Source: a virus (Duplodnaviria; Heunggongvirae; Uroviricota; Caudoviricetes). Taken from it: DNA of 41,569 nt. The notes below the pieces were generated by a model, which worked only from the letters and a program-made list of their open reading frames with translations, did not search any database and had not been told where the DNA came from. Positions 5,846 through 41,569 of the stretch are shown piece after piece; position 1 is the stretch's first letter; the number at the start of each line of letters is the position of its first letter. Made by a program: the position numbers and the translations under genes. The stretch is from IMG/VR virus record IMGVR_UViG_3300031993_000032; one strand, 5' to 3'.

Positions 5846-5965
5846 GGTACGTTGAAGCTAAATAGCCGTCTAACAAGACGACTTGATATTGTAACGAGTT
5901 TGACACGGTCTTATTCAAGGAAACAGTCTGGTTCATGAAGTCACCGACGTCTATACCCAGTTTCC

Positions 5966-5994
5966 TTGACATTAATCGATAAATAAACTAATTT
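5966..5994 (+). promoter_or_regulatory. sigma70-type promoter
   Basis: TTGACA-N17-TAATTT. Confidence 0.55.
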
Positions 5995-6013
5995 GCAACT
6001 CAGAAGGAACAAT

Positions 6014-6190
6014 ATGTTCAAGCGAGTTGCATTTTTTGTTATAGCCATGATACTGATCGCTTTCCTTGCGTTCAGCGTCTTTGCGCTGTTCAACTACGAT
6101 GAACCTGACTGCTACGTCGGCTTACCCGGCTGTGCCATATTCGGGGCAATCCTATGCGACTGGCTGCTGGACAAGTTCAACAAGTTTTGA
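6014..6190 (+). CDS. Small membrane protein
   Basis: AAGGA RBS; two hydrophobic segments. Confidence 0.7.
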   Translation: MFKRVAFFVIAMILIAFLAFSVFALFNYDEPDCYVGLPGCAIFGAILCDWLLDKFNKF

Positions 6191-6197
6191 GGTTCGG

Positions 6198-6635
6198 ATG
6201 AAGTTTACTCTAAAAGCATACAGCGATCTCGGTAGATACAGCATGGGCACCTTTCTGGACGAGTTTGATACGGACACCTACAAGATACTCGATAGGGGCA
6301 AGGAAGTCACTATCCGTTCCGTAGAGGACTTGTTCCCCTACCTATGGCAGTCACCTGGCGTAGCCTTCCATTCCGAAGGCAAGCACGTCGCCGATTTCTG
6401 CGGTACGGGTACACACTGGCACCATGACTTTGACGACAGCATCCTTGAATACGAAAAGGACATCCGCAAGCTGGAGAAGAAGGTAGACAAGGCCACTACT
6501 CCCAGAAAGAAAGAAAAGTACCAAAAAGAATTGGACTGGACGGTAAAGCATGCACATAGCTTAAAGGACATGCTGAAACGTCTGGACACCGAAATGGAAG
6601 AAATGAAACAGAAGCTGATCGAGGAGAACAAGTGA
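6198..6635 (+). CDS. Hypothetical protein with coiled-coil C-terminus
   Basis: GAGG RBS before MKFTLKAYS; typical codon usage. Confidence 0.75.
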   Translation: MKFTLKAYSDLGRYSMGTFLDEFDTDTYKILDRGKEVTIRSVEDLFPYLWQSPGVAFHSEGKHVADFCGTGTHWHHDFDDSILEYEKDIRKLEKKVDKATTPRKKEKYQKELDWTVKHAHSLKDMLKRLDTEMEEMKQKLIEENK

Positions 6636-7039
6636 CCCAGTTTCTCGTATCAATTTACCGAAAGGCTTTTATAGACACGTTGCCGATGGTAAAGTTCCCT
6701 CTGACCCATGCAATGTGCGACAAGAACGACTACGAGAACCTTGAAGGCGATGACGTACTCGTCATGCTGCAAGTGCGATACGGAAAGCTCATGTCGGTCG
6801 TCATCTACCAGGAAACTGCAGAAGGCGAGATCCGTGTGTTCTCGTTCGAGGTTACGTCGGACTGCCACCTTCTCGACTTCGGCACCAACGCCATGAACGA
6901 ACTCAAGACGGGCTATAAATTCATAACATTGAACAGCTTGCCGGAAAGCAAGATATTCTACGAGAAGCAAGGTTTCGATCCTAACGGAGAGAACTCCTAC
7001 ATCTGGAGACGCCATGATACGAGACCTTATTTTCTTTAA
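6632..7039 (+). CDS. GNAT-fold acetyltransferase-like protein
   Basis: GTGA overlap start; FEV...FGTNAMNEL...ITLNSLPESKIFYEKQGF matches GNAT motifs A/B. Confidence 0.65.
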   Translation: MTQFLVSIYRKAFIDTLPMVKFPLTHAMCDKNDYENLEGDDVLVMLQVRYGKLMSVVIYQETAEGEIRVFSFEVTSDCHLLDFGTNAMNELKTGYKFITLNSLPESKIFYEKQGFDPNGENSYIWRRHDTRPYFL

Positions 7040-7355
7040 AACCGTCGAGGACTTGGAAGAGCTCACCGGGCTGTCCAGAAACGAGCTGTGGGAACACGGC
7101 GCTAATCTCGACGACTGGGACTACGGCTTCTGTTGTACGCAACAGCTCCACAAGGAAGTCACCGAGGAGAAGGAGAAGTACGAGATCGACCCTTGGGACA
7201 AGCCAGCCGAAGACGGCAAGTATTACAAAACATACAACACTTACGACTACGACGACCCCACATGCCAGCTGATGCAGAGCGCCGAGAACTACTGCGTCGG
7301 ATGGAACCACTTCACCATAGACGGAAAGCACTACTACACGGTACACCACGCATAA
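7014..7355 (+). CDS. Hypothetical protein
   Basis: Acidic/aromatic phage-type ORF, typical codon usage. Confidence 0.7.
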   Translation: MIRDLIFFKTVEDLEELTGLSRNELWEHGANLDDWDYGFCCTQQLHKEVTEEKEKYEIDPWDKPAEDGKYYKTYNTYDYDDPTCQLMQSAENYCVGWNHFTIDGKHYYTVHHA

Positions 7356-7371
7356 CCGCACACTAGGCAAG

Positions 7372-7400
7372 TTGACAGACAATGGCCTTTTTGCTATATT
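7372..7400 (+). promoter_or_regulatory. sigma70-type promoter (probably leaderless transcript)
   Basis: TTGACA 7372-7377, N17, TATATT 7395-7400; ATG at 7408 with no SD. Confidence 0.75.
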
Positions 7401-7407
7401 CTGATAC

Positions 7408-7665
7408 ATGGAAAAGCTATATATTCTCATGTACCGTCAAATTCAGTTCACTGGTAAAGGTGATCCGTCCCACTGGAGCGAAACTATCATCGCCCAGTCC
7501 ACAGACAAGGCTTTCATCGACAAGATCGTCAAGGACAACAACCTTGCACTCGGCGACATCAACGACAGCTATGACTTCAATCACACTTACTTCGTCAAGG
7601 AAATGGACATACCGTTCATCAACAAGTACGTATTCAACCTCTATCACCTCAAGAGACCGCAATAA
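7408..7665 (+). CDS. Hypothetical protein
   Basis: ORF directly after promoter, TAATG-coupled to next gene. Confidence 0.75.
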   Translation: MEKLYILMYRQIQFTGKGDPSHWSETIIAQSTDKAFIDKIVKDNNLALGDINDSYDFNHTYFVKEMDIPFINKYVFNLYHLKRPQ

Positions 7666-13626: not shown

Positions 13627-13831
13627 TGAAGCTTGGCGAACTTGTCCAAATCTACAAGCAGCACGGCAACTTGCCGATCTATTACCGAGACTTCGACTAT
13701 CGACAATGACAAGGTGGATTCTGAAATTTGTTAGGCGTATGAAGCGACGCTGGCTATGCTTCAACGAAATAGAAGACCGAAAAGAACTGTCTGGACACCA
13801 TTTCTATGGTCCCGGTGGAACTGTTATTTGA
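13626..13831 (+). CDS. Two translationally coupled mini-ORFs (13626-13709, 27 aa; 13706-13831, 41 aa)
   Basis: TAATG then ATGA overlaps; below track cutoff; could also be one frameshifted gene. Confidence 0.45.
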
Positions 13832-13856
13832 CACCCACGCCGATTTTTGCTATATT
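13828..13856 (+). promoter_or_regulatory. sigma70-type promoter
   Basis: TTGACA-N17-TATATT. Confidence 0.75.
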
Positions 13857-19961: not shown

Positions 19962-20058
19962 ATATACGAGTTCGTGGTGGTTCTTGTATATTGGAATGAG
20001 TTTTTGAGTGCCAGTTGGATGCTAACCACCACAATAAGCGTCCGACTGGCACTTCTAG
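19962..20058 (+). other. Two-hairpin structure with complementary loops upstream of tnpB
   Basis: Stem 19962-19970/19983-19991 with loop GTGGTGGTT; stem 20006-20023/20037-20054 with loop AACCACCAC. Confidence 0.6.
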
Positions 20059-20069
20059 TTGGTTGTCAG

Positions 20070-21398
20070 ATGATACGAGCCACAAAACATACGCTGAAAT
20101 TCGCCAATACCGGCAAGCGTTCGTCTATCGACACACTGCTTGCTGAATGGCGACGCGTCATGCAGTTGATGTGTGATGACATGTGGCTAAATGGATACCG
20201 ATGGAAAGAGGAAGACGGCTGGCACGAGTTCAAGCCAACCCAATTTAAGTACGAATTGCCGAAATATCTTGATTACAATAGGTTCAATATAGATACGTGG
20301 CTTTCTGCAAGGATGCTTAGTTCTCTTGTTACACAGCTCAGTGGCAAGCTACGCGCAATATGTAGCAAGAATGCTGCCAGATTGTATGTATTCGACAAGG
20401 AAGCCGGAAAAGGAAACTACCTTGAACGCCTATGGGAAACAATCGAAACACGGAATCCGTCAAAGCCGGATTTATCAGATGCCGCTATTGAGATATCGAG
20501 CAAGTGCGCCGAGTTCATCCATACGCCAGATGGCGAGTTCTATGGCTTTCTCCGCATCAAGTCGACTGGATTGCCTATTTTCCATGTACCAATATGCCGG
20601 CAAAAGCATTTATCCAAGTATATGGACGGTACATGGACTAGATGTAACGGTTACCTTATAGACGAATACGGAATCCAGCTCCGCTGGGAGAAGGAATTTG
20701 TCGAGAAAGAGATAGGTAACAAGGTAGGCGCTGACCAAGGATTATTGACTTGCGTATCACTATCTGATGGACAGACTACACCAGATATGGTCGTCAGCGC
20801 ACCTAGAAGTGGCGAACCAGATAGGACTATAACGGTTAATTTAGACACTATAACGGACAAACTGGCTCGTAAGAAGAAAGGCTCCAAGTCATTCGAGCGA
20901 ACTCAGACTGAACGAAGGAATTACATCAACTATGCGGTTAAACGGTTAGATTTTAGCAACATCAAGGAAATCGGCCTTGAGAAAATAACGAATATCAACT
21001 ATGGACGGAATACGTCCAGAAAGATGAAACATTGGTCCAACCCGGAGATAGTCACCAGGTTGACGCAAGTCGCAGAGGAGTTCGGTGTCCGAATCAATCT
21101 GCAATCGAACGCCTACCGATCTCAACGCTGCTCCGGATGTGGACACGTACTCAAGAAGGCGAGGAAGGGAAAGCTATATGTCTGCCCGCTATGCGGGCTT
21201 ACGATGGATGCCGATCTCAATGCGGCCAAAAACCACGCAATAGAGCTACCCGCTATACCTCACTCAACTGAGTTCTCCAAACTGGCAAAGACCGAAGGCT
21301 TCTTCTGGTTGTCTAACGGTTTGTTCAGAATGGATGGTTCGGAGTTAAGAGTCCCGAATACGTCAAAAAGTCAATCGGTATATTTGGTTATATTTTGA
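20070..21398 (+). CDS. tnpB: RNA-guided endonuclease TnpB
   Basis: RuvC-I GADQG, RuvC-II IGLEK, zinc finger RCSGCG...CPLCG, RuvC-III DADLNAAKN; start set to MIRATKH. Confidence 0.9.
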   Translation: MIRATKHTLKFANTGKRSSIDTLLAEWRRVMQLMCDDMWLNGYRWKEEDGWHEFKPTQFKYELPKYLDYNRFNIDTWLSARMLSSLVTQLSGKLRAICSKNAARLYVFDKEAGKGNYLERLWETIETRNPSKPDLSDAAIEISSKCAEFIHTPDGEFYGFLRIKSTGLPIFHVPICRQKHLSKYMDGTWTRCNGYLIDEYGIQLRWEKEFVEKEIGNKVGADQGLLTCVSLSDGQTTPDMVVSAPRSGEPDRTITVNLDTITDKLARKKKGSKSFERTQTERRNYINYAVKRLDFSNIKEIGLEKITNINYGRNTSRKMKHWSNPEIVTRLTQVAEEFGVRINLQSNAYRSQRCSGCGHVLKKARKGKLYVCPLCGLTMDADLNAAKNHAIELPAIPHSTEFSKLAKTEGFFWLSNGLFRMDGSELRVPNTSKSQSVYLVIF

Positions 21399-22255: not shown

Positions 22256-22328
22256 TGATAATCCTTTTGTTGAAGGGGACGCCAAATGCATACGAGACTA
22301 GGGCAGTCCCGTATGCATTCGATTCAGT

Positions 22329-24005
22329 CTAGGCTACGTTGTTCAAGTAGGTCAGCGAAGCGTTGATCGGACTGGTGCGGTTATATGCGGCTTGGATATC
22401 ATCCATACTGAAGCCGAAGCCGTACACGCTAGAAGTCTTCAAGCGGAGCAGAGTTTCCATGGCATCATGTTCCACATTGTCCAAGAACGTCTGCGAGTGT
22501 GCCGCACTCGTATCGTTGACAATGTGAGCGATGGAGCTACGGAACGCATCTACTTCCTTGTAGTACGCTGCCATACGAGCAATCAGCACACCCAGGTTAA
22601 ACTTGTTGCCTTCCACGTTACGAACCCATACCTTGCGGTTGATATCGACAAGGCAACGGAGCCAGTAGGGGACGACACCAAGTTGACGATGACGGCATTC
22701 GCTCATGGTCTCAATCAGCCAACTAGGTACGTTCAGCGAATTGGTAGTAGTACCATTCACGTAATCGTGGAAAATACTGATTGAGTTGATGGTGCAAGAG
22801 AACACAACGCGAGTGAACAGACGGATTTCATCGTCATTGATGTACACGCCATGCAGACGCTCGTCGGCATCGTTGTTGCTGAGAATCATGTCGCCGTTGC
22901 CGAGCAAGCGTTCGGCACCGCCATGTCCGAGAATGGTCACGGAGTCGGTAGCCGAGCTGACCTTGAACGCAATGCGGCACGGAAGGTTGGCCTTGAGATC
23001 GCCAGTCACCACCTTCACAGAAGGTCTCTGCGTGGCAAGCACCAAGTGGATGCCGACTGCACGGCTCTTCTGTGCGAGTCTCTGCACTATGGAAGTGAGT
23101 TCTGCACCAGCAGTCATCATCAAGTCGGCGAATTCGTCAACCACGCAGACTACGTAGCGCATCTTTTCAACGCAGTCCACACCGATCGGCTGAGTATTCA
23201 CCCATTCGTTGTAGGACTTGATGTTACGATGGCCGTACTTGGTGAGAATAGCATAGCGGCGTTCCATTTCGGTGACGAGCCAACGGAGACCATCGAGTGA
23301 TTCGTTAGGGTCAACGAGGATCTTGCCGTTGATGCAGTTCGGCATCTTCTGGTAATCGTTCAGTTCCACGCCCTTGGGGTCAACGAGCATCAATTCAAAG
23401 TCATTCAAGGACACGTTGCGGAGCAACGAGCAGAGAAGGGAGTTGATGCAGACGGACTTTCCAGAGCCGGTCTGACCAGCAATCAGAAGGTGCGGTGCCT
23501 TCGCCAAGTCGATGGCACGTGCTTCGCCATTGACGGTAACACCGAGTTCAAGCGGAAGCGCCATACCTTCGGTATTGGCCGTATGCACATTACCGAGACG
23601 GACGACCTTGCGTTCCTTTGCGGGAATATCCAAGGCGAGAACACCCTTTTCGGATACGGAAGTGAAGGATGCGCACTTGACCTGGAGCTGCATAGCGATA
23701 TCGTCAGCAAGAGCTTCAATAGTCTTGATGCGGACACCATGCGGCAACTTCAAGTTGACACGAGTAACCACGGGACCGCATTCGATGCTATGCACTTGAA
23801 CGCCAGTCACGCCGAAACTAGAGATAGCGCTAATCACACGGTCACCGAGATCTTCGTCGGCAGAGCCAGAGAGATCGGTGGTCACGTTGAAATAGGTGCT
23901 GTTCTTTATAAATCCGATATTGCTAGTGTCAATGCCATAGAAGGCCACCGAATGGGTGGCGGTCATGTCAAGACCAAAGCCGTTTTCGAAAGTTTCGTTA
24001 GTCAT
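22329..24005 (-). CDS. FtsK/SpoIIIE-family DNA translocase motor lacking TM and gamma domains
   Basis: Alpha domain (GPVVTR...GVRIKTI), Walker A AGQTGSGKS, LVDPK, Walker B VVDEFADLM, ATQRPS, GAERLLGNGDM; GGAGG RBS before MTNETF. Confidence 0.9.
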   Translation of the reverse strand: MTNETFENGFGLDMTATHSVAFYGIDTSNIGFIKNSTYFNVTTDLSGSADEDLGDRVISAISSFGVTGVQVHSIECGPVVTRVNLKLPHGVRIKTIEALADDIAMQLQVKCASFTSVSEKGVLALDIPAKERKVVRLGNVHTANTEGMALPLELGVTVNGEARAIDLAKAPHLLIAGQTGSGKSVCINSLLCSLLRNVSLNDFELMLVDPKGVELNDYQKMPNCINGKILVDPNESLDGLRWLVTEMERRYAILTKYGHRNIKSYNEWVNTQPIGVDCVEKMRYVVCVVDEFADLMMTAGAELTSIVQRLAQKSRAVGIHLVLATQRPSVKVVTGDLKANLPCRIAFKVSSATDSVTILGHGGAERLLGNGDMILSNNDADERLHGVYINDDEIRLFTRVVFSCTINSISIFHDYVNGTTTNSLNVPSWLIETMSECRHRQLGVVPYWLRCLVDINRKVWVRNVEGNKFNLGVLIARMAAYYKEVDAFRSSIAHIVNDTSAAHSQTFLDNVEHDAMETLLRLKTSSVYGFGFSMDDIQAAYNRTSPINASLTYLNNVA

Positions 24006-24025
24006 GTTCAAATCCTCCAAGAGTT

Positions 24026-34914: not shown

Positions 34915-35655
34915 ATGTCAACAATAGATTACTATACCGATGATGCCGAACGTACTTATCTAATAAGCCACGTATACCAGACTCCATACTTCGCCCCTGG
35001 TGAATTATCCAAGATTGAAAACTATGCCCAAGCGTTGGCAAATAATTTCGTTGGTTGGGTCATTCACCACAGATTAGAACTGAACCCAGATGGTAGCGTT
35101 AACAAACGTCGTGATGAATTAATACTATCAAACCAGTATTACTATCGTCCGGCAAATGAATTGATCTTTTTAACCAGTATCGAACATGGCAAACTACATG
35201 GGCACTCTATAAAGCCGAACCCCACTATAGTGTCACACGAAACGAGGAATAAACAGAGTAACGCCAAGTTGGTCGCCAATAACACCGAGGAACGTTACCG
35301 AGTAGTTTCTGCGTTGGTGGAGTCTGGCGAACTGTTATGCATGTCTGACTATCAGTTCTACCGTCGGTATTGCCAACGTAACGGCATAGCGTTTACTGGG
35401 GCAAAGGTTGACAAGAGTCATACGGTTAGTCGAGTCGATGTGCCGAAGGTGAATGTAACTAAAAATAAACAAAGTCGAACTGAACGTACTGAAGCTCGAT
35501 ATAAAGATGTCATGGAACGCTTAAATAATGGTGATGTTCTACCGATGAAGGAATTTTCGTTTCTCCGTCGGTATTGTGATAGGCGTCTCATAGACGTTCC
35601 GTCGATCATTATCGTAGACGACGGATTCAAATTAAAAAATATATCTGGCGTGTGA
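34915..35655 (+). CDS. HNH endonuclease with duplicated C-terminal module
   Basis: WVIHHRLE...YYRPANELIFLTSIEHGKLH; repeats TEERY...YQFYRRYC and TEARY...FSFLRRYC; lone plus-strand gene in the array. Confidence 0.7.
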   Translation: MSTIDYYTDDAERTYLISHVYQTPYFAPGELSKIENYAQALANNFVGWVIHHRLELNPDGSVNKRRDELILSNQYYYRPANELIFLTSIEHGKLHGHSIKPNPTIVSHETRNKQSNAKLVANNTEERYRVVSALVESGELLCMSDYQFYRRYCQRNGIAFTGAKVDKSHTVSRVDVPKVNVTKNKQSRTERTEARYKDVMERLNNGDVLPMKEFSFLRRYCDRRLIDVPSIIIVDDGFKLKNISGV

Positions 35656-35718
35656 TCCCATTATTTGGGAAATTTCCGGTCCCGTCGGAAACGTGCCAGT
35701 CAGTCGGCGCTGGAGGCC

Positions 35719-35751
35719 AAAAAAAGCCCCAGGTCCCGAAGGATCTGGAGC
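35719..35751 (-). terminator. Intrinsic terminator (cUUCGg loop)
   Basis: GCTCCAGATCC-TTCG-GGACCTGGGGC-TTTTTTT. Confidence 0.8.
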
Positions 35752-35814
35752 TTTTCCAACCAAGGAGAAAAAAGACTATATAACTGGAGTATGTTCTAAA
35801 CCGATCAACCGCCC

Positions 35815-36345
35815 TTAAAACAATTTATGTAGCTTGAGTTCGTTTTCCGCGATTTGGTCATGGATTTTATTGATTTTGTCCAAGTACTGCTGTTCTCTGT
35901 AGTTAGCAATGACTTTATGGATGAACCCTCTAGGGTCATCCAGGTCGGCCATGGCGCTATCTTTTGTGGACGCTTCCTCGAAGAGGACAGTATCACCTTC
36001 GTCAGCCAGAATCCGGCACATGAGAGCCGGGTTAGGGTCATTCTTGTCAGTATCGACGAATAGTCTTAGGTTTATGATAAGGTCCGGAAGATTAGCGATC
36101 CCTACTATATCGGATTCGAAAATTAATTCGGAGACATTATCGGACACGAACGGAGCGATAGGCGTAGGTCCATCCCCTAGGGCGAGTTTGAGTTCAGTAC
36201 CGAATCTATCCCCATAGGGACACTGTTGGTGCAGTCTGGCAATGAAAAGATCATTATCCAGCGGTTTACCGTTATCCTCTGGGAGTTGTCTGGAATTGAT
36301 CCAAGGGATAACGAGGTTATCTATAAAGGATTTGAGTCTGGACAT
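35815..36345 (-). CDS. Hypothetical protein
   Basis: AAGGAG RBS. Confidence 0.75.
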   Translation of the reverse strand: MSRLKSFIDNLVIPWINSRQLPEDNGKPLDNDLFIARLHQQCPYGDRFGTELKLALGDGPTPIAPFVSDNVSELIFESDIVGIANLPDLIINLRLFVDTDKNDPNPALMCRILADEGDTVLFEEASTKDSAMADLDDPRGFIHKVIANYREQQYLDKINKIHDQIAENELKLHKLF

Positions 36346-36350
36346 GATAC

Positions 36351-36722
36351 TTACTCCTTACTGATAAGGTTGTCGAGGATATGTTTTTGCGCTAGGATAA
36401 CGAGTTTAGACGGGTTATCGGAAGCTATGACCCACAGTCCGTTATCATTGATTCTGGTAATGGTTCCGTTTACGGATCTCATGATATTGATTTTGGTCAC
36501 GTTATCGGCCATCAGGAACGATATTGTATATGAGAACATGACGTTATTCTGGTCATAAACATAACCGAGAATGACGATATCACCGTTTTTGCTTGATTCG
36601 ACCTTAGGAGAACTGAACGACATGTTATCGAACGCTGGGGAGAGATAAGTTTTTACTTGGTTCAAGACCATCTGGTTATAATCGTTGACCTTTTTCATGA
36701 AACGGATTTCGTTTTTATTCAT
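36351..36722 (-). CDS. Hypothetical protein, paralog of 28206-28577
   Basis: EIRF...YLSPAF..MSFSSP...GDIVILG...RSVNGTITRI...LWVI. Confidence 0.8.
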   Translation of the reverse strand: MNKNEIRFMKKVNDYNQMVLNQVKTYLSPAFDNMSFSSPKVESSKNGDIVILGYVYDQNNVMFSYTISFLMADNVTKINIMRSVNGTITRINDNGLWVIASDNPSKLVILAQKHILDNLISKE

Positions 36723-36807
36723 ATAAGCCTCTGGTTGTTAAGTCTTTGTAGGTTATAAGGGACCGAGTCAGTCCCGTTGGAAATGAGTCATTATGGAACT
36801 GTGGCAC

Positions 36808-36840
36808 AAAAAGGCCCCAGTACCCGAAGGTACTGGAGCT
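36808..36840 (-). terminator. Intrinsic terminator (cUUCGg loop), related to 35719-35751
   Basis: GCTCCAGTACC-TTCG-GGTACTGGGGC-CTTTTT. Confidence 0.8.
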
Positions 36841-36863
36841 TTCCAACCACGGAGCATGAAAAC

Positions 36864-37193
36864 TTAAAAGTGTGGAATGTCGGTAATAAGGGTAAGGCTG
36901 TTGACGTACTGCCAAGCCTGGGTCAGAGTACGTTCGAGCGCATTCTTGTTACTGGATAGGTAGGCGGCGTTGAACGGAATGGTTCGGAACAGATCCGGAT
37001 GATGGTTGAAGTGAGCGACCACTCGACCCGGTTCAGCCTTGACAACCACGGATCCATGGTCGAACTCGATCATACCTTCCTCGACTGCGTTATTGAACAG
37101 TTGACGGAAGATGATTTTTTGGTTATCGATACGGTTTTTCTGTTGTTGAGCCTGGTGATGTGCATACCAAGCGATAGGATCCGCGAAGTTCAT
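36864..37193 (-). CDS. Hypothetical protein
   Basis: AAGGAG RBS. Confidence 0.75.
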   Translation of the reverse strand: MNFADPIAWYAHHQAQQQKNRIDNQKIIFRQLFNNAVEEGMIEFDHGSVVVKAEPGRVVAHFNHHPDLFRTIPFNAAYLSSNKNALERTLTQAWQYVNSLTLITDIPHF

Positions 37194-37217
37194 GTAAAAG
37201 CTCCTTATGGTAACAGT

Positions 37218-37424
37218 TTATGGGGTTACTCCACTGGTTCCAGTGACTTTTGTGTCTACGGAAACGGCACGGTTTGCCAGATCCGGATATTGGCCTTTGA
37301 ATGTATCGAGAGCCAGGGTTCTGGCCATAGACTTTGCCAAGTCGATCGACGGAGCTTCGACATTATTGATATGTACATTTACTTTGACGGTGATTTCGAC
37401 GAGAGTGGATAATACTTTAGCCAT
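37218..37424 (-). CDS. Hypothetical protein
   Basis: CAACCAAGGAG leader. Confidence 0.75.
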   Translation of the reverse strand: MAKVLSTLVEITVKVNVHINNVEAPSIDLAKSMARTLALDTFKGQYPDLANRAVSVDTKVTGTSGVTP

Positions 37425-37514
37425 GATGGATCTCCTTGGTTGTGTGTGCCCTTAGTATAGGTGATGCATGCAGTCCCGTGGGGAACGTGCCAGTCCCTGG
37501 TCGGCGGAGGCCAG

Positions 37515-37547
37515 AAAAAAGCCGAGACGGAGATCATCCGTCCCGGC
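37515..37547 (-). terminator. Intrinsic terminator
   Basis: GCCGGGACGG-N7-CCGTCTCGGC-TTTTTT. Confidence 0.8.
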
Positions 37548-37557
37548 CAACCAGGGA

Positions 37558-38006
37558 GCTACAGAAAAGTGTAAGATCTTCTCGTGACTGACTCGTCTGG
37601 GCGAGCCGTCTCCCAGTCACTCGATACTCGGCGTTGGACATCTATCGCCACATCGCTACCGAGCATGAAGATTTTTTTTCGTGGTCTGACCAAGTCGAAC
37701 ACGAACCGTTATCTGAAACCTACCTAAATCTACCAAGAGATAGACCTATGTGATTTCCTACCTTGCTCGTTGCCGAGTAGGCCGTAACGGCACTTAATCA
37801 ACCATATCTACGCGATATTCCTAATATGCATCAAGCAATATGGCTGACTTGCCTAGTCCTACTCCATTGATGGAGAGCCTTAACACGGTCGGCATATCAA
37901 ACTAGACATGAGTAAATATAGTTCAATCGTTATCTATTTTCAATAGCAGATTTAAGTATATTTAGTTAAATTTTGTTAACATTTGTGACTGCAGTCGGTT
38001 ACCCAT
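37558..38006 (-). pseudogene. Promoter-to-terminator unit with no intact ORF (decayed gene or ncRNA)
   Basis: RBS plus 14-aa ORF MGNRLQSQMLTKFN (37962-38006); distal protein-like frames joined by a frameshift at an A8 run (37672-37679) end at TAG next to the terminator module. Confidence 0.4.
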
Positions 38007-38078
38007 GATTAAATCTCCTTGATTGGTTGTGCCGAATGAATAAGCTGGCGAGGCAGTCCCGCCAGCTGGCGGACAGTC

Positions 38079-38633
38079 CTACAGTTCCGTCTCGATAGTC
38101 CACTTCGTCCAGACGGGCCAGGTGTTCGGCGACTCCGCGCACTTGGTCTGGAGCAGCATTTTCGCCGTGGGGAACATGATACCGTCAGACTCTTCCTTGT
38201 ATGCCTCGGCGAGCCTCTTGAAGTCGTCGATGACAAACTGGATCGCCTCGCCGACGGTGGCGCAAATCTTGACAAAGGAACGGAGATCGCCGTTCTGGTT
38301 GTCATACTGTGCGCCGTGGACAGCAACGAAGTTGCATTCGTGTTCCCAGACGGAGCAGTCGATGTAGTCGCCGCCAGTGGTTTCAAAGGACACGCTTTCG
38401 GTCGTCTCTCTGATGGCAGCCAGCAGTGCTTCGGTGTCGTCCAGATCGCCCTCGAACATCTTGCCGTCGAAGTAGACGTTTTCCAGACGGCTTCTGAAGT
38501 ACTCGTCTTCCTCGATCTTCTTACGTGCCCAAGCGTGAAGCTCGTTGATGGCTTCCTTCTCGACTGGATACATATCGACGGATTCGGCGGTTCTGTCGTC
38601 CTGATGGAAAATAATCAAGCTAAACTGTTTCAT
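38079..38633 (-). CDS. Acidic hypothetical protein
   Basis: Follows element 38689; stop abuts element 38054. Confidence 0.8.
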   Translation of the reverse strand: MKQFSLIIFHQDDRTAESVDMYPVEKEAINELHAWARKKIEEDEYFRSRLENVYFDGKMFEGDLDDTEALLAAIRETTESVSFETTGGDYIDCSVWEHECNFVAVHGAQYDNQNGDLRSFVKICATVGEAIQFVIDDFKRLAEAYKEESDGIMFPTAKMLLQTKCAESPNTWPVWTKWTIETEL

Positions 38634-38714
38634 TTCTGATCTTCTTGATTGGTTTGGTTGGTTGTGTAGAATGAATAAGACGGCGGAGCAGTCCCGCCGT
38701 CCGGCGGCCAGTTC

Positions 38715-39074
38715 CTAGAGCTTCTCGATCTTGTCTGAAACGGTCATCAGCGCCTTGTAGTCTGTGCCGCCGTCGAGATCGGCGATATCGTTGATGTACT
38801 TGCTGAAGAAGTATTTCAGCCAATCGGCTTCACGCTGGGTGAGCTTAAGGGTCTTTGTCTTGAGTTGGTCTGCCTTATCCAGCTCGATAAAATTCTCGTC
38901 GAAGAACTTTCGGCTCACTTTAGTTGCGTCTAGGTACATTCCGGATATAAGCACTTTTTCCGGGTCATTAAATACCCAGAGACAGGTATATCGGTTGCCC
39001 TTCTTAATCTTGACACCGCCCAGACCTTTGGTATGGGTAGCGACGTAAATTCTAGATACTACAGGTATTGGCAT
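38715..39074 (-). CDS. Hypothetical protein
   Basis: CAACCAAGGAG leader before MPIPVV. Confidence 0.8.
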   Translation of the reverse strand: MPIPVVSRIYVATHTKGLGGVKIKKGNRYTCLWVFNDPEKVLISGMYLDATKVSRKFFDENFIELDKADQLKTKTLKLTQREADWLKYFFSKYINDIADLDGGTDYKALMTVSDKIEKL

Positions 39075-39168
39075 GGTTGATCTCCTTGGTTGAGGTTTGT
39101 ATGGAATAAATATTATCTGAAAGCAGTCCCGTCGGTTCTTTACCAGTAGCCAGGTGCGGCTGGCAAAT

Positions 39169-39197
39169 AAAAACTGGGCGGAATTGCTTCCGCCCAG
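39169..39197 (-). terminator. Intrinsic terminator (GCAA tetraloop)
   Basis: CTGGGCGGAA-GCAA-TTCCGCCCAG-TTTTT, perfect 10-bp stem. Confidence 0.85.
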
Positions 39198-39222
39198 CAA
39201 CCAGGGAGTTAAAAATTATTTT

Positions 39223-40014
39223 TTAGTGGTCATGGCAAGCGATAACCTTGACCTTGCTGTCAATGCATAGTCTGCAGTTCTCGCAGTGCGACTTGGGATC
39301 GGGGTTGAGCTTGGCTTTGCCAGTTTTACCGACTACCAGGTAGGCAGGGCAGTAGCACTTGGTAGGCAAGCACATATCCACGCCGTCATCGAAGACGAAT
39401 GCCTTGACGTTCGGCAAGTGAGAATATTTTTTGTAGGCTTCGACGCCCACGTCGTGCCAGACCGAGAACAAGATCGTGAAGTTGGGCGGCACGTCGCCGT
39501 TTTCGAGGAATTTTCCCACGATATCGTACATTTTCGTGTACAGATAGAACTTGGTATCAGGGAAACGGATCGCAAGGCGGCACCACATGGCCATTTGGCG
39601 TTCGTTTTCGAGTTCGCCAGACTGGTTGATACGGGCGATCTTGACGTGGCGGCGTTCGATCTGGTTGGCCAGATCGGCTTCGACCTTCTTGAGTTCGTGA
39701 CGGAGACCCCAGGTGTTGATTGCCTGGGACTGGACGACTCCAGGGAAGCGGTAGGAAGCTCTGACGTAGCAGCTCTTCTTACAGGCGCTGCAGTTCTTGC
39801 AAGTGCCCTTGATACCTTCGAGTTCGTCGTTGAGACCTTCGTAGGTGTAGTCGCCGAGCAGCGTAGACCACGTGGCGATACGGCCTACCTTGATGTTGCC
39901 AGCGAGACTGAAGCCGTAGGTGTGAGCCTTGGGATCGAAGGTATAGCGTTCGATTCCGTTGGGCGTGACCGTCTTGGTGTCTTCGTGGAACAGTTTCTTA
40001 GATTCTTTAGCCAT
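39223..40014 (-). CDS. Gp88-like protein (radical-SAM-related Cys cluster)
   Basis: GNIKVG, GTCKNCSACKKSCY, RINQSGE, FYLYTK, terminal CENCRLC motifs. Confidence 0.7.
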   Translation of the reverse strand: MAKESKKLFHEDTKTVTPNGIERYTFDPKAHTYGFSLAGNIKVGRIATWSTLLGDYTYEGLNDELEGIKGTCKNCSACKKSCYVRASYRFPGVVQSQAINTWGLRHELKKVEADLANQIERRHVKIARINQSGELENERQMAMWCRLAIRFPDTKFYLYTKMYDIVGKFLENGDVPPNFTILFSVWHDVGVEAYKKYSHLPNVKAFVFDDGVDMCLPTKCYCPAYLVVGKTGKAKLNPDPKSHCENCRLCIDSKVKVIACHDH

Positions 40015-40100
40015 AATGTAGCTCCTTAGGTTGAATTGGCTTTGTGCTTAAATTATATCAGAAAGGGGCAGTCCCGGAGAACTGCCGCCAGTTTCCAGAA

Positions 40101-40646
40101 CTACTGAACCTTCATGCCAAGCTGTTTAGCAGCGGCAATCAAGCATCGCTTTTGCAATTCAGCATTGAATGTATTAAAGGCGGCCTTGATTTCCTTGACT
40201 GTATGTACTTCGACCTCATCTTTAACTTCGACATCATCAAAGTCGCTGGACACGTACAGTATACAGAGTTCGCATTTGGTCTCGCCAGAATCATGTCTGG
40301 TCAGACGAATTGTGAAATCATACCGGTTATATTCAGCGCTCAATTCGAGCTTGGTGTCATACAGCCCATGGAAAACTCGCTTCGTCAGATTATTGACGCA
40401 ATCGGCATACTCTTCAAACACCAGTAGATTCAATTGATCCACGCATGACTCGACAAAATTCAAGTCACGATCGGTATTGAACACGTCCGGCAATCTATAC
40501 GGTTCATCGAAATCCAGATCGCTTGGATTGATTTCAGACATCTTGTCCAGGAGTACCTGGAGGATCGGGTCGAACGGTTTGGCTACCGGCTTGACGGCGG
40601 CCTTCTTGGTAGTCTTCTTGGTGGATTTCTTGATAGTTGTTTTCAT
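40101..40646 (-). CDS. Hypothetical protein with Lys/Thr-rich basic N-terminus
   Basis: CAACCAAGGAG leader; MKTTIKKSTKKTTKKAAVKP. Confidence 0.8.
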   Translation of the reverse strand: MKTTIKKSTKKTTKKAAVKPVAKPFDPILQVLLDKMSEINPSDLDFDEPYRLPDVFNTDRDLNFVESCVDQLNLLVFEEYADCVNNLTKRVFHGLYDTKLELSAEYNRYDFTIRLTRHDSGETKCELCILYVSSDFDDVEVKDEVEVHTVKEIKAAFNTFNAELQKRCLIAAAKQLGMKVQ

Positions 40647-40722
40647 AAAAACTCCTTGGTTGATTGTATAGGGGAAATAACCCGGCTAGGCAGTCCCGCA
40701 GGGCTGCCGCCAGTTTCCAGAA

Positions 40723-41205
40723 CTACTGATAGAGACAGCTGTTTCTGTCAATGAGGGTCACCAGGTGTTCTCTGGAGAGAGGCTTCGTGAAGCTCATGAC
40801 TTCTGTGGCATTGAGTCCCTCGGAGTCGTCAACCGACAGCTTGCTGGGGATAGCCGTCAGCTCGTAGTCACCAGTGGTGTCAATCGCCAGCTTGTAGCCA
40901 GTCTCCTTGAGGGCGGCGAACAGCGGCTCGGCAGCCTTCTGGAGCTTCTCAATCACACTGCCATAGTTGACGCCGAGCAGTGCCTCTGCACGAGAGGTGA
41001 ACGGGCCGTTCACCTCGGACACGACCCAGTCGTCAGTGCGTACGGACGGACACAGCTTGTGTGCGTACTCAATTGCCAAGTTGTTGAACTCCTCAGAATG
41101 CGTGTCGTAGTCGGTCTCCACGCCTACCCAGATCTCAGGGCTAGCGACCTGTCCTGAAGGAACAACCTTGCTGGAACACAAAACAAAATACTTGGACTTT
41201 TTCAT
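40723..41205 (-). CDS. Hypothetical protein
   Basis: AACCAAGGAG leader. Confidence 0.8.
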   Translation of the reverse strand: MKKSKYFVLCSSKVVPSGQVASPEIWVGVETDYDTHSEEFNNLAIEYAHKLCPSVRTDDWVVSEVNGPFTSRAEALLGVNYGSVIEKLQKAAEPLFAALKETGYKLAIDTTGDYELTAIPSKLSVDDSEGLNATEVMSFTKPLSREHLVTLIDRNSCLYQ

Positions 41206-41287
41206 GATTAACTCCTTGGTTTGGGTGTATAGGGAAAATAACCCGGCAGGGCAGTCCCGCCGGGTATCGGCCAGTTCCTAGACTGTA

Positions 41288-41506
41288 TTAATCGCACTCC
41301 TTGACAAGTTCCTTGAGTTTCTTGCCAGCGGCTGCCATTCCGTCTTCGTCGTCTTCGGCGACGGCGTCGTCATAATCATTGAGCGCAGCCCTCACCTTCT
41401 GACGGAATTCTTTGTCCTTGGTAGCCTTGGCGTCGAGCTTCCAAGCATCGCCGTAATCAATTTCCCCAGTAAGCTGGGCTACGTCTTCGAGTCTGGATTC
41501 AAACAT
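41288..41506 (-). CDS. Small acidic hypothetical protein
   Basis: CAACCAAGGAG leader. Confidence 0.8.
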   Translation of the reverse strand: MFESRLEDVAQLTGEIDYGDAWKLDAKATKDKEFRQKVRAALNDYDDAVAEDDEDGMAAAGKKLKELVKECD

Positions 41507-41569
41507 TGTTAATCTCCTTGGTTGATTGTGTGTAACGGAAATAACCCGGTAGAGCAGTCCCGTGACTGG

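Follow-up and report, generated by a model that had tools for sequence, protein, structure and literature searches.

Short-homology recombination between terminator-promoter cassettes is the probable source of gene turnover in the small-gene array of a huge uncultured rumen phage

The stretch of viral DNA analysed here (IMG/VR record IMGVR_UViG_3300031993_000032; 41,569 nucleotides (nt), hereafter the window) carries a one-directional array of small genes separated by copies of an intergenic element with the core CGGGACTG. Our comparisons of these copies, both with each other and with those of related phages, suggest that the elements are composite terminator-promoter cassettes whose two halves have been reassorted. 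We consider it probable that the array is remodeled by short-homology general recombination and gene conversion between the cassettes, which are analogous to the promoter-early stem-loops (PeSLs) of T4-type phages but differ from them in that their promoter is not of the sigma70 type.

The core occurs 21 times in the window, on the minus strand only and between positions 22304 and 41562, compared with 0.97 occurrences (maximum 4) expected from shuffled sequences, and every copy precedes a small minus-strand gene. JGI contig L001, which is 100% identical to the window across 10,847 nt, adds 9.6 kb of array past the window end, so that the two together hold 36 exact copies, or 37 counting near-exact cores. 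Nine contigs, drawn from several samples in JGI, ENA, and Logan, have the same arrangement. The array forms the hyperplastic block of early genes in a huge uncultured phage; most of its proteins have no Pfam or PHROG match, and the region had no megablast match among GenBank phages. Read along the gene strand, the element begins with the stop codon of the upstream gene, usually a TAG fused to a GACTG box, followed by a spacer of 12-13 nt and the invariant core CGGGACTGCC. After a further 8-10 nt come TATTnn, TATACAA, the leader CAACCAAGGAG, 7-9 nt, and the ATG. Stop codon, promoter, stem-loop, Shine-Dalgarno, and start codon are all contained in the alignment of 35 copies. The distance from the upstream box to the core is 20 nt in all copies at 37471 and above and in all copies past the window end, and 21 nt in all copies at or below 34312 except 32450 and 31524 (copy 36769, whose upstream box is degenerate, was left out of this score). 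The regional clustering of two spacing types described in an earlier note on this DNA is therefore borne out. A 246-amino-acid (aa) open reading frame (ORF) on the plus strand (34915-35655) divides the two sub-arrays. A trans-acting ribozyme or another RNA family was considered as the identity of the core and rejected, as the window has no match to Rfam families and no tRNA.

In many copies the bases flanking the core are complementary and a T-rich tail follows, which places the core in the loop of a terminator-like hairpin. About a third of the copies have a GC-rich stem and a T-rich tail around the core, and 46 elements, out of 160 unique ones in seven contigs, have at least six contiguous pairs in one register. 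Across these 160 elements, pairing between the flanks reaches 0.568, compared with 0.504 ± 0.008 when partners are shuffled, and several pair types occur per position. This covariation and a terminator scan, which recovers both the element hairpins and separate canonical terminators, support the predicted hairpins. A separate canonical terminator lies just upstream of the hairpin-less copies 39124, 37471, 36769, and 35677. All four of these terminators are adjoined by an inverted leader/ribosome-binding motif, CCAACCA[ACG]GGAG (plus-strand positions 35758, 36845, 37549, and 39199), which reads CUCCNUGGUUGG on the minus-strand RNA, just 5' of the terminator stem, and is kept in relatives. On read-through transcripts, CUCCNUGGUUGG might mask the ribosome-binding site of the next gene.

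The promoter of the element appears to be of a non-sigma70 type, with the bipartite arrangement GACTG-N12/13-CGGGACTGCC plus TATTnn. The distance from the core to TATTnn is unlike that of a -35/-10 pair, and a search for sigma70-type promoters found 4 sites, compared with 7.2 expected, none of them on any element. Seven perfect TTGACA-N17-TATATT promoters in the window, often ending in AGTTATATT, form a separate, host-type class from the CGGGACTG elements (Table 1). Two of the seven sit just 3' of an element core.

The earlier note had proposed that the left and right flanks of the element are reassorted between copies. All seven shared strings on which it drew were found in place (Table 1), and the 26-mer among them does span the last codon (CAG) and the TAG of two unrelated genes, whose products of 181 and 160 aa gave a BLASTP E value of 0.37. 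The flanks are only 13-30 nt long, so that run-sharing, Mantel, and independence tests were used instead of flank trees, with a null in which each aligned column was shuffled among 37 copies (the window plus 9.6 kb of L001). On the left, runs of identity reach 10 nt or more in 16 pairs of copies (null mean 0.52, null maximum 4), and the longest run is 26 nt (null maximum 14). On the right, there are 41 such pairs compared with 2.6 expected. Of the 16 pairs that share on the left, just 2 do so on the right as well (0.98 expected under independence, p = 0.24), and left and right sharing are likewise nearly independent in four relatives, making five genomes in all. Near-left and near-right similarity are weakly linked in the Mantel test (r = 0.18), as expected from stem complementarity, and far-left similarity is linked to no other flank. 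Sharing is thus non-random on each side yet unlinked across the core, meaning that the halves have really been reassorted among copies. Flank similarity also rises with genomic proximity (r = 0.32-0.38, p = 0.0002). Between non-allelic copies, tracts of identity have a median of 10 nt, a 90th percentile of 13 nt, and a maximum of 29 nt; within the genome they mostly end a few bases before the core, the 26-mer ending 5 nt before it.

Relatives were found by protein-anchored searches; six contigs were compared, and all carry the element on one strand. G001 ('rel' in element labels) is a 348-kb IMG/VR contig from the same sample as the window, 91% complete by CheckV, and is confirmed by a 99.995%-identical contig, L023 (Ga0265298), in a second metagenome record. 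It has 62 copies on one strand, confined to 232-293 kb, and is the only contig with multiple copies in a pattern scan of IMG/VR, the others having no more than a chance single match. The core in G001 is often CGGGGCTGCC (e.g., L020/L019 merged positions 5903-7665 and 20883). In one G001 subtype, the terminator stem has the core itself as its 5' arm (GGGGCTGC-CAC-GCAGCCCC), which brings the hairpin designs that contain this core to at least three. L022 has 98% amino-acid identity to the window in the 184-aa gene, L024 and L025 are further relative contigs, and the L029 type comprises four near-identical contigs from different samples.

Gene-order maps of the six relatives agree with the claim that genes are gained, lost, duplicated, and moved, and about half of the array genes are lineage-specific. 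L022 lacks six cassettes between the 59-aa and 160-aa genes, a 3.4-kb indel. Its junction 13*20 is also present in an independent Logan run and assembly, and its junction 20*98 is supported by its JGI contig and one similar place whose sequence was not shown. In the L029 type, gene 23 is tandemly duplicated with a near-identical element. The 72-aa gene (41288-41506) is found in three different contexts across the relatives.

Three base-resolved cases place breakpoints inside elements and leave chimeric elements behind, as had been suggested. The clearest comparison is between copy 40691 and L022:6894, downstream of the 160-aa gene. Here 70 of 70 nt and CGGGACTGC are identical, and then the two diverge completely. 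The L022 ortholog keeps its native stem partner (GCTGCC pairs with GGCAGC), whereas the right half of 40691, directly after CGGGACTGC, belongs to the local CCGGGTTATTT family of its neighbours; 40691 is therefore a chimera. In the cassette of the GP88-family gene (40069), the right half is orthologous in all relatives and is joined to three different left halves, with the switch at or next to the core. The element L024:1324 joins a left half of the rel:20906 type to a right half of the comb:8071 type. In addition, the two copies of the 26-bp repeat bracket the 181-aa gene, which would fit insertion of a cassette via recombination in the left half of the element.

Other exchanges switch elsewhere. 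The contexts of the 72-aa gene share only the region from ribosome-binding site to stop codon, which indicates that this gene moved as a bare ORF without its promoter. At the 3.4-kb indel of L022 the switch is near the ribosome-binding site, and the cassette of the 184-aa gene (38689) has another upstream gene in L022, with the switch at stop codon and box. The gene downstream of copy 38054 is broken within its first codons. Because the breakpoint relative to the other genomes lies inside the gene start, this copy now drives only a 13-codon ORF (ATGGGTAAC...), a remnant of a family 70 gene that is intact in relatives. The ~450 nt after this ORF (37549-38007) hold no convincing gene and no Rfam or tRNA match.

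To place the switch points, averaged identity profiles (up-only or down-only) were too mixed by paralogs and were replaced by per-junction change-point calls, using 29 informative junction comparisons and a position-specific background identity from 10,611 non-orthologous pairs. The switches span five zones from -30 to beyond +36, with no fixed crossover position: 5 of the 29 are at the stop codon or upstream box, 9 in the spacer (five of these at -3/-4), 4 in the core, 2 in the right stem, and 9 at +20 or beyond, where the alignments inspected place them at the ribosome-binding site or ATG. The earlier note had centred recombination on the core. This did not hold, since about 9 of the 29 switches fall in the core block (-4 to +14), compared with the 27% expected from its 18 of 67 positions. 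To this approximation, the core does not seem to be a preferred crossover site beyond its length.

Gene-order changes and chimeras come directly from the comparison of genomes, and from them we infer the mechanism. Non-allelic cassettes, whose common blocks of identity are short and no longer than 29 nt (median 10 nt), would recombine by crossover and short-patch gene conversion, both inside one genome and between co-infecting relatives. Crossovers could fall in any conserved block, namely the stop codon and box, the core and stem, or the ribosome-binding site. The products would be chimeric cassettes, indels that span one to six gene cassettes, genes duplicated in tandem, and single ORFs in new places, and selection would retain only those junctions that keep terminator, promoter, and ribosome-binding site working. 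The machinery is probably the general recombination system of the phage. G001 encodes a UvsX-like recombinase (phrog_97, E 3e-45; RecA profile 25 bits). In the same genome PF00589 (Phage_integrase) had no match, with all 14 control genomes positive, and Resolvase, RecT, and Y1_Tnp had none either, again with positive controls. No tyrosine recombinase was found among the window proteins scanned. G001 also encodes two sigma70-family proteins, which may read the element promoters; a search for a T7-like RNA polymerase was uninformative, the control also being without any match.

Several points weigh against this mechanism. Identity tracts of 10-29 nt are short for classical homologous recombination. 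Some left-flank subtypes, ACTGGCGGCAGCCCTG among them, are found repeatedly in different genomes and may be kept by function, not by recent exchange. The 29 junction comparisons are partly non-independent and come from gapless core-anchored alignments of diverged sequences, so that some switch calls are imprecise and the counts approximate. The promoter and terminator roles of the elements are predictions from their sequence, and the recombination-gene inventory is that of the relative G001, not of the window's own genome.

Alternatively, the cassettes may be exchanged by copy-choice, with forks stalling at extruded hairpins and resuming on another cassette without strand-exchange proteins. 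Such template switching would create the chimeras and indels and would account for the very short homology tracts (median 10 nt) and for exchange being mostly local, with similarity tracking proximity, and many elements are able to form hairpins. We regard it as unlikely, as many switches occur away from the hairpin, at the stop codon or ribosome-binding site, and about half of the elements have no hairpin. Sequence alone does not separate template switching from UvsX-type recombination. A related view, which we hold to be quite unlikely, is that the hairpin with the core in its loop is a structure-directed recombination hotspot, through cruciform or hairpin cleavage or fork stalling, the other junctions being secondary. 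If true, the phage promoter would double as a dedicated cassette-exchange site needing no integrase.

Integron-like exchange, suggested in the earlier note and taken here to mean a dedicated recombinase that targets the hairpin or core, with every crossover within CGGGACTG, is very unlikely. Several junctions are exactly at or next to the core (40691 vs L022, the GP88 cassette, L024:1324), and the frequent position of the core in a hairpin loop is reminiscent of folded attC sites. However, switch points are spread across the whole cassette, and their frequency in the core block is roughly that predicted from its length; no element accompanies the 72-aa gene when it moves; the 26-bp repeat stops 5 nt short of the core; neither a tyrosine or serine recombinase nor a Y1 transposase is present in the 91%-complete relative; and, whereas integron cassettes lack promoters, each cassette here has one of its own. 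It is highly improbable that there was no exchange at all, with flank families being promoter or terminator sub-classes shaped by selection or convergence and variant orders being assembly artefacts at repeats: sub-types such as ACTGGCGGCAGCCCTG do recur in both genomes and stem complementarity does constrain the flanks, but identity reaches non-functional positions (last codon, spacers), point mutation cannot yield orthologous anchors with one flank 100% identical and the other <50% identical (40691 vs L022), the repeats are at most 29 nt, below the k-mer sizes with which assemblers usually finish, and the window order recurs in nine contigs, the L029 type in four samples, and the L022 13*20 junction in an independent Logan run.

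General recombination between cassettes has a precedent in the PeSLs of the T4-type phages RB49/phi1, T4/PST, and KVP40/nt-1 (Arbiol et al. 2010, PMC2839356; Comeau et al. 2014, PMC4122927). In the PeSL model, composite promoter/terminator cassettes, conserved over ~100 bp, serve as portable homology for general recombination, which produces chimeric cassettes and lets the flanked orphan genes be gained, lost, and moved (PMC2839356, PMC4122927). The comparison with PeSLs drawn in the earlier note is apt. Like PeSLs, the elements described here are intergenic composites of upstream stop codon, promoter, stem-loop terminator, Shine-Dalgarno, and start codon, with dozens of copies concentrated in a hyperplastic region where the genes are small orphans. 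In both systems, elements mark the ends of the indels and replacements that distinguish relatives, chimeras arise from recombination between neighbouring copies, and the position of the stem-loop relative to the promoter is variable. Unlike in PeSLs, the promoter is the bipartite GACTG-N12/13-CGGGACTGCC plus TATTnn and not the sigma70 consensus, and its invariant core is often the loop of the terminator hairpin. In addition, almost every gene across some 30-60 kb has a cassette, and the phage is an uncultured rumen phage of ~350 kb. In its spacing only, the promoter resembles T4 middle promoters (MotA box near -30 plus -10), with a conserved box at about -30 to -21 relative to the likely start, no -35 hexamer, and a -10-like TATTnn; it differs in the box sequence and in a second upstream box two helical turns away.

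With integron arrays (IntI, attI x attC), the system shares a one-directional array of small, mostly orphan genes with a hairpin-capable repeat between them, and a gene content that differs between relatives. The term integron-like nevertheless does not fit: no integrase was matched in G001 or among the scanned window proteins, there is no fixed crossover position, breakpoints also lie at stop and start codons, and each cassette has a ribosome-binding site and a promoter-like element of predicted activity, in contrast to integron cassettes, which have no promoter and depend on the common promoter Pc for expression. Phage gene shuffling of this sort is already known, and integron-like fixed-site cutting is not indicated. 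Our results caution against calling such arrays integron-like. At base resolution and in several natural relatives, they indicate that orphan early genes are also turned over via recombining terminator-promoter cassettes in huge phages that do not belong to the cultured T4 group, and they would generalise the PeSL principle to a phage-specific, non-sigma70 promoter. The usable homology length (10-29 nt) and the crossover positions are thereby made concrete. The practical value is modest, in helping to account for the flux of orphan genes and the mosaic promoters seen in the genomes of megaphages.

Table 1. Features of the window between 35677 and 41569, strings shared between element copies, and perfect TTGACA-N17-TATATT promoters.
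Feature	Position	Strand	Remarks
Cassette upstream of 72-aa gene, core 41555-41562	41507..41569	minus	Cut by window end; left flank (from L001) like copy c3177, right flank like c6493; right half-stem ACCGGG unpartnered
72-aa gene (family 19)	41288..41506	minus	TAATG overlap with next gene
Cassette, core 41252-41259	41206..41287	minus	7-bp terminator-like hairpin ACCCGGC / GCCGGGT, core in loop; far-left string TCTAGGAACTGGCC common to copy 38689
160-aa orphan gene (family 20)	40723..41205	minus	Directly after 59-aa gene in L022
Chimeric cassette, core 40691-40698	40647..40722	minus	Left half and core 100% identical to L022 ortholog
26-bp perfect direct repeat (shared 26-mer), first copy	40704..40729	minus	Downstream of 160-aa gene; holds last Gln codon, TAG, upstream box, part of spacer
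181-aa orphan gene (family 21)	40101..40646	minus	Only in this genome among those compared
26-bp perfect direct repeat (shared 26-mer), second copy	40082..40107	minus	Downstream of 181-aa gene; content as in first copy
Cassette of GP88-family gene, core 40069-40076	40015..40100	minus	
GP88-family gene, 263 aa	39223..40014	minus	Conserved array anchor
Canonical terminator 39173-39198, then cassette, core 39124-39131	39075..39222	minus	Cassette without own hairpin
Cassette, core 38689-38696	38634..38714	minus	Hairpin GACGGCG / CGCCGTC
Cassette, core 38054-38061	38008..38078	minus	Hairpin AGCTGGCG / CGCCAGCT
Terminator 37520-37548 and cassette, core 37471-37478	37425..37548	minus	Left flank GACTGGCACGTT common to copy 35677
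Terminator 36814-36839 and cassette, core 36769-36776	36723..36839	minus	Degenerate upstream box
Orphan/degenerate copy, core CGGGACCG at 35677-35684	35677..35741	minus	Left half intact behind terminator; no promoter-like right half, no downstream gene
Shared string AAATAACCCGG	40675, 41236, 41539		
Shared string GGCCAGTTCCTAGA	38706, 41269		
Shared string GAATGAATAAG	38034, 38669		
Shared 16-mer	26472, 29220		
Shared string CGGAACCAGTCC	25134, 28164		
Shared string AACGTGCCAGTC	35690, 37484		
Perfect TTGACA-N17-TATATT promoters	32403-32375, 27255-27227, 24054-24026, 18880-18852	minus	
Perfect TTGACA-N17-TATATT promoters	2123-2151, 7372-7400, 13828-13856	plus	

At the lower border of the array lies a TnpB-like ORF on the plus strand (19974-21398; 474 aa, with a Cas12f1-like TNB domain). 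The last gene of the element-driven array encodes an FtsK/SpoIIIE-family ATPase of 563 aa (22329-24020, minus strand). It is driven by a copy with the core CGGGGCTG, followed by a sigma70-type promoter.

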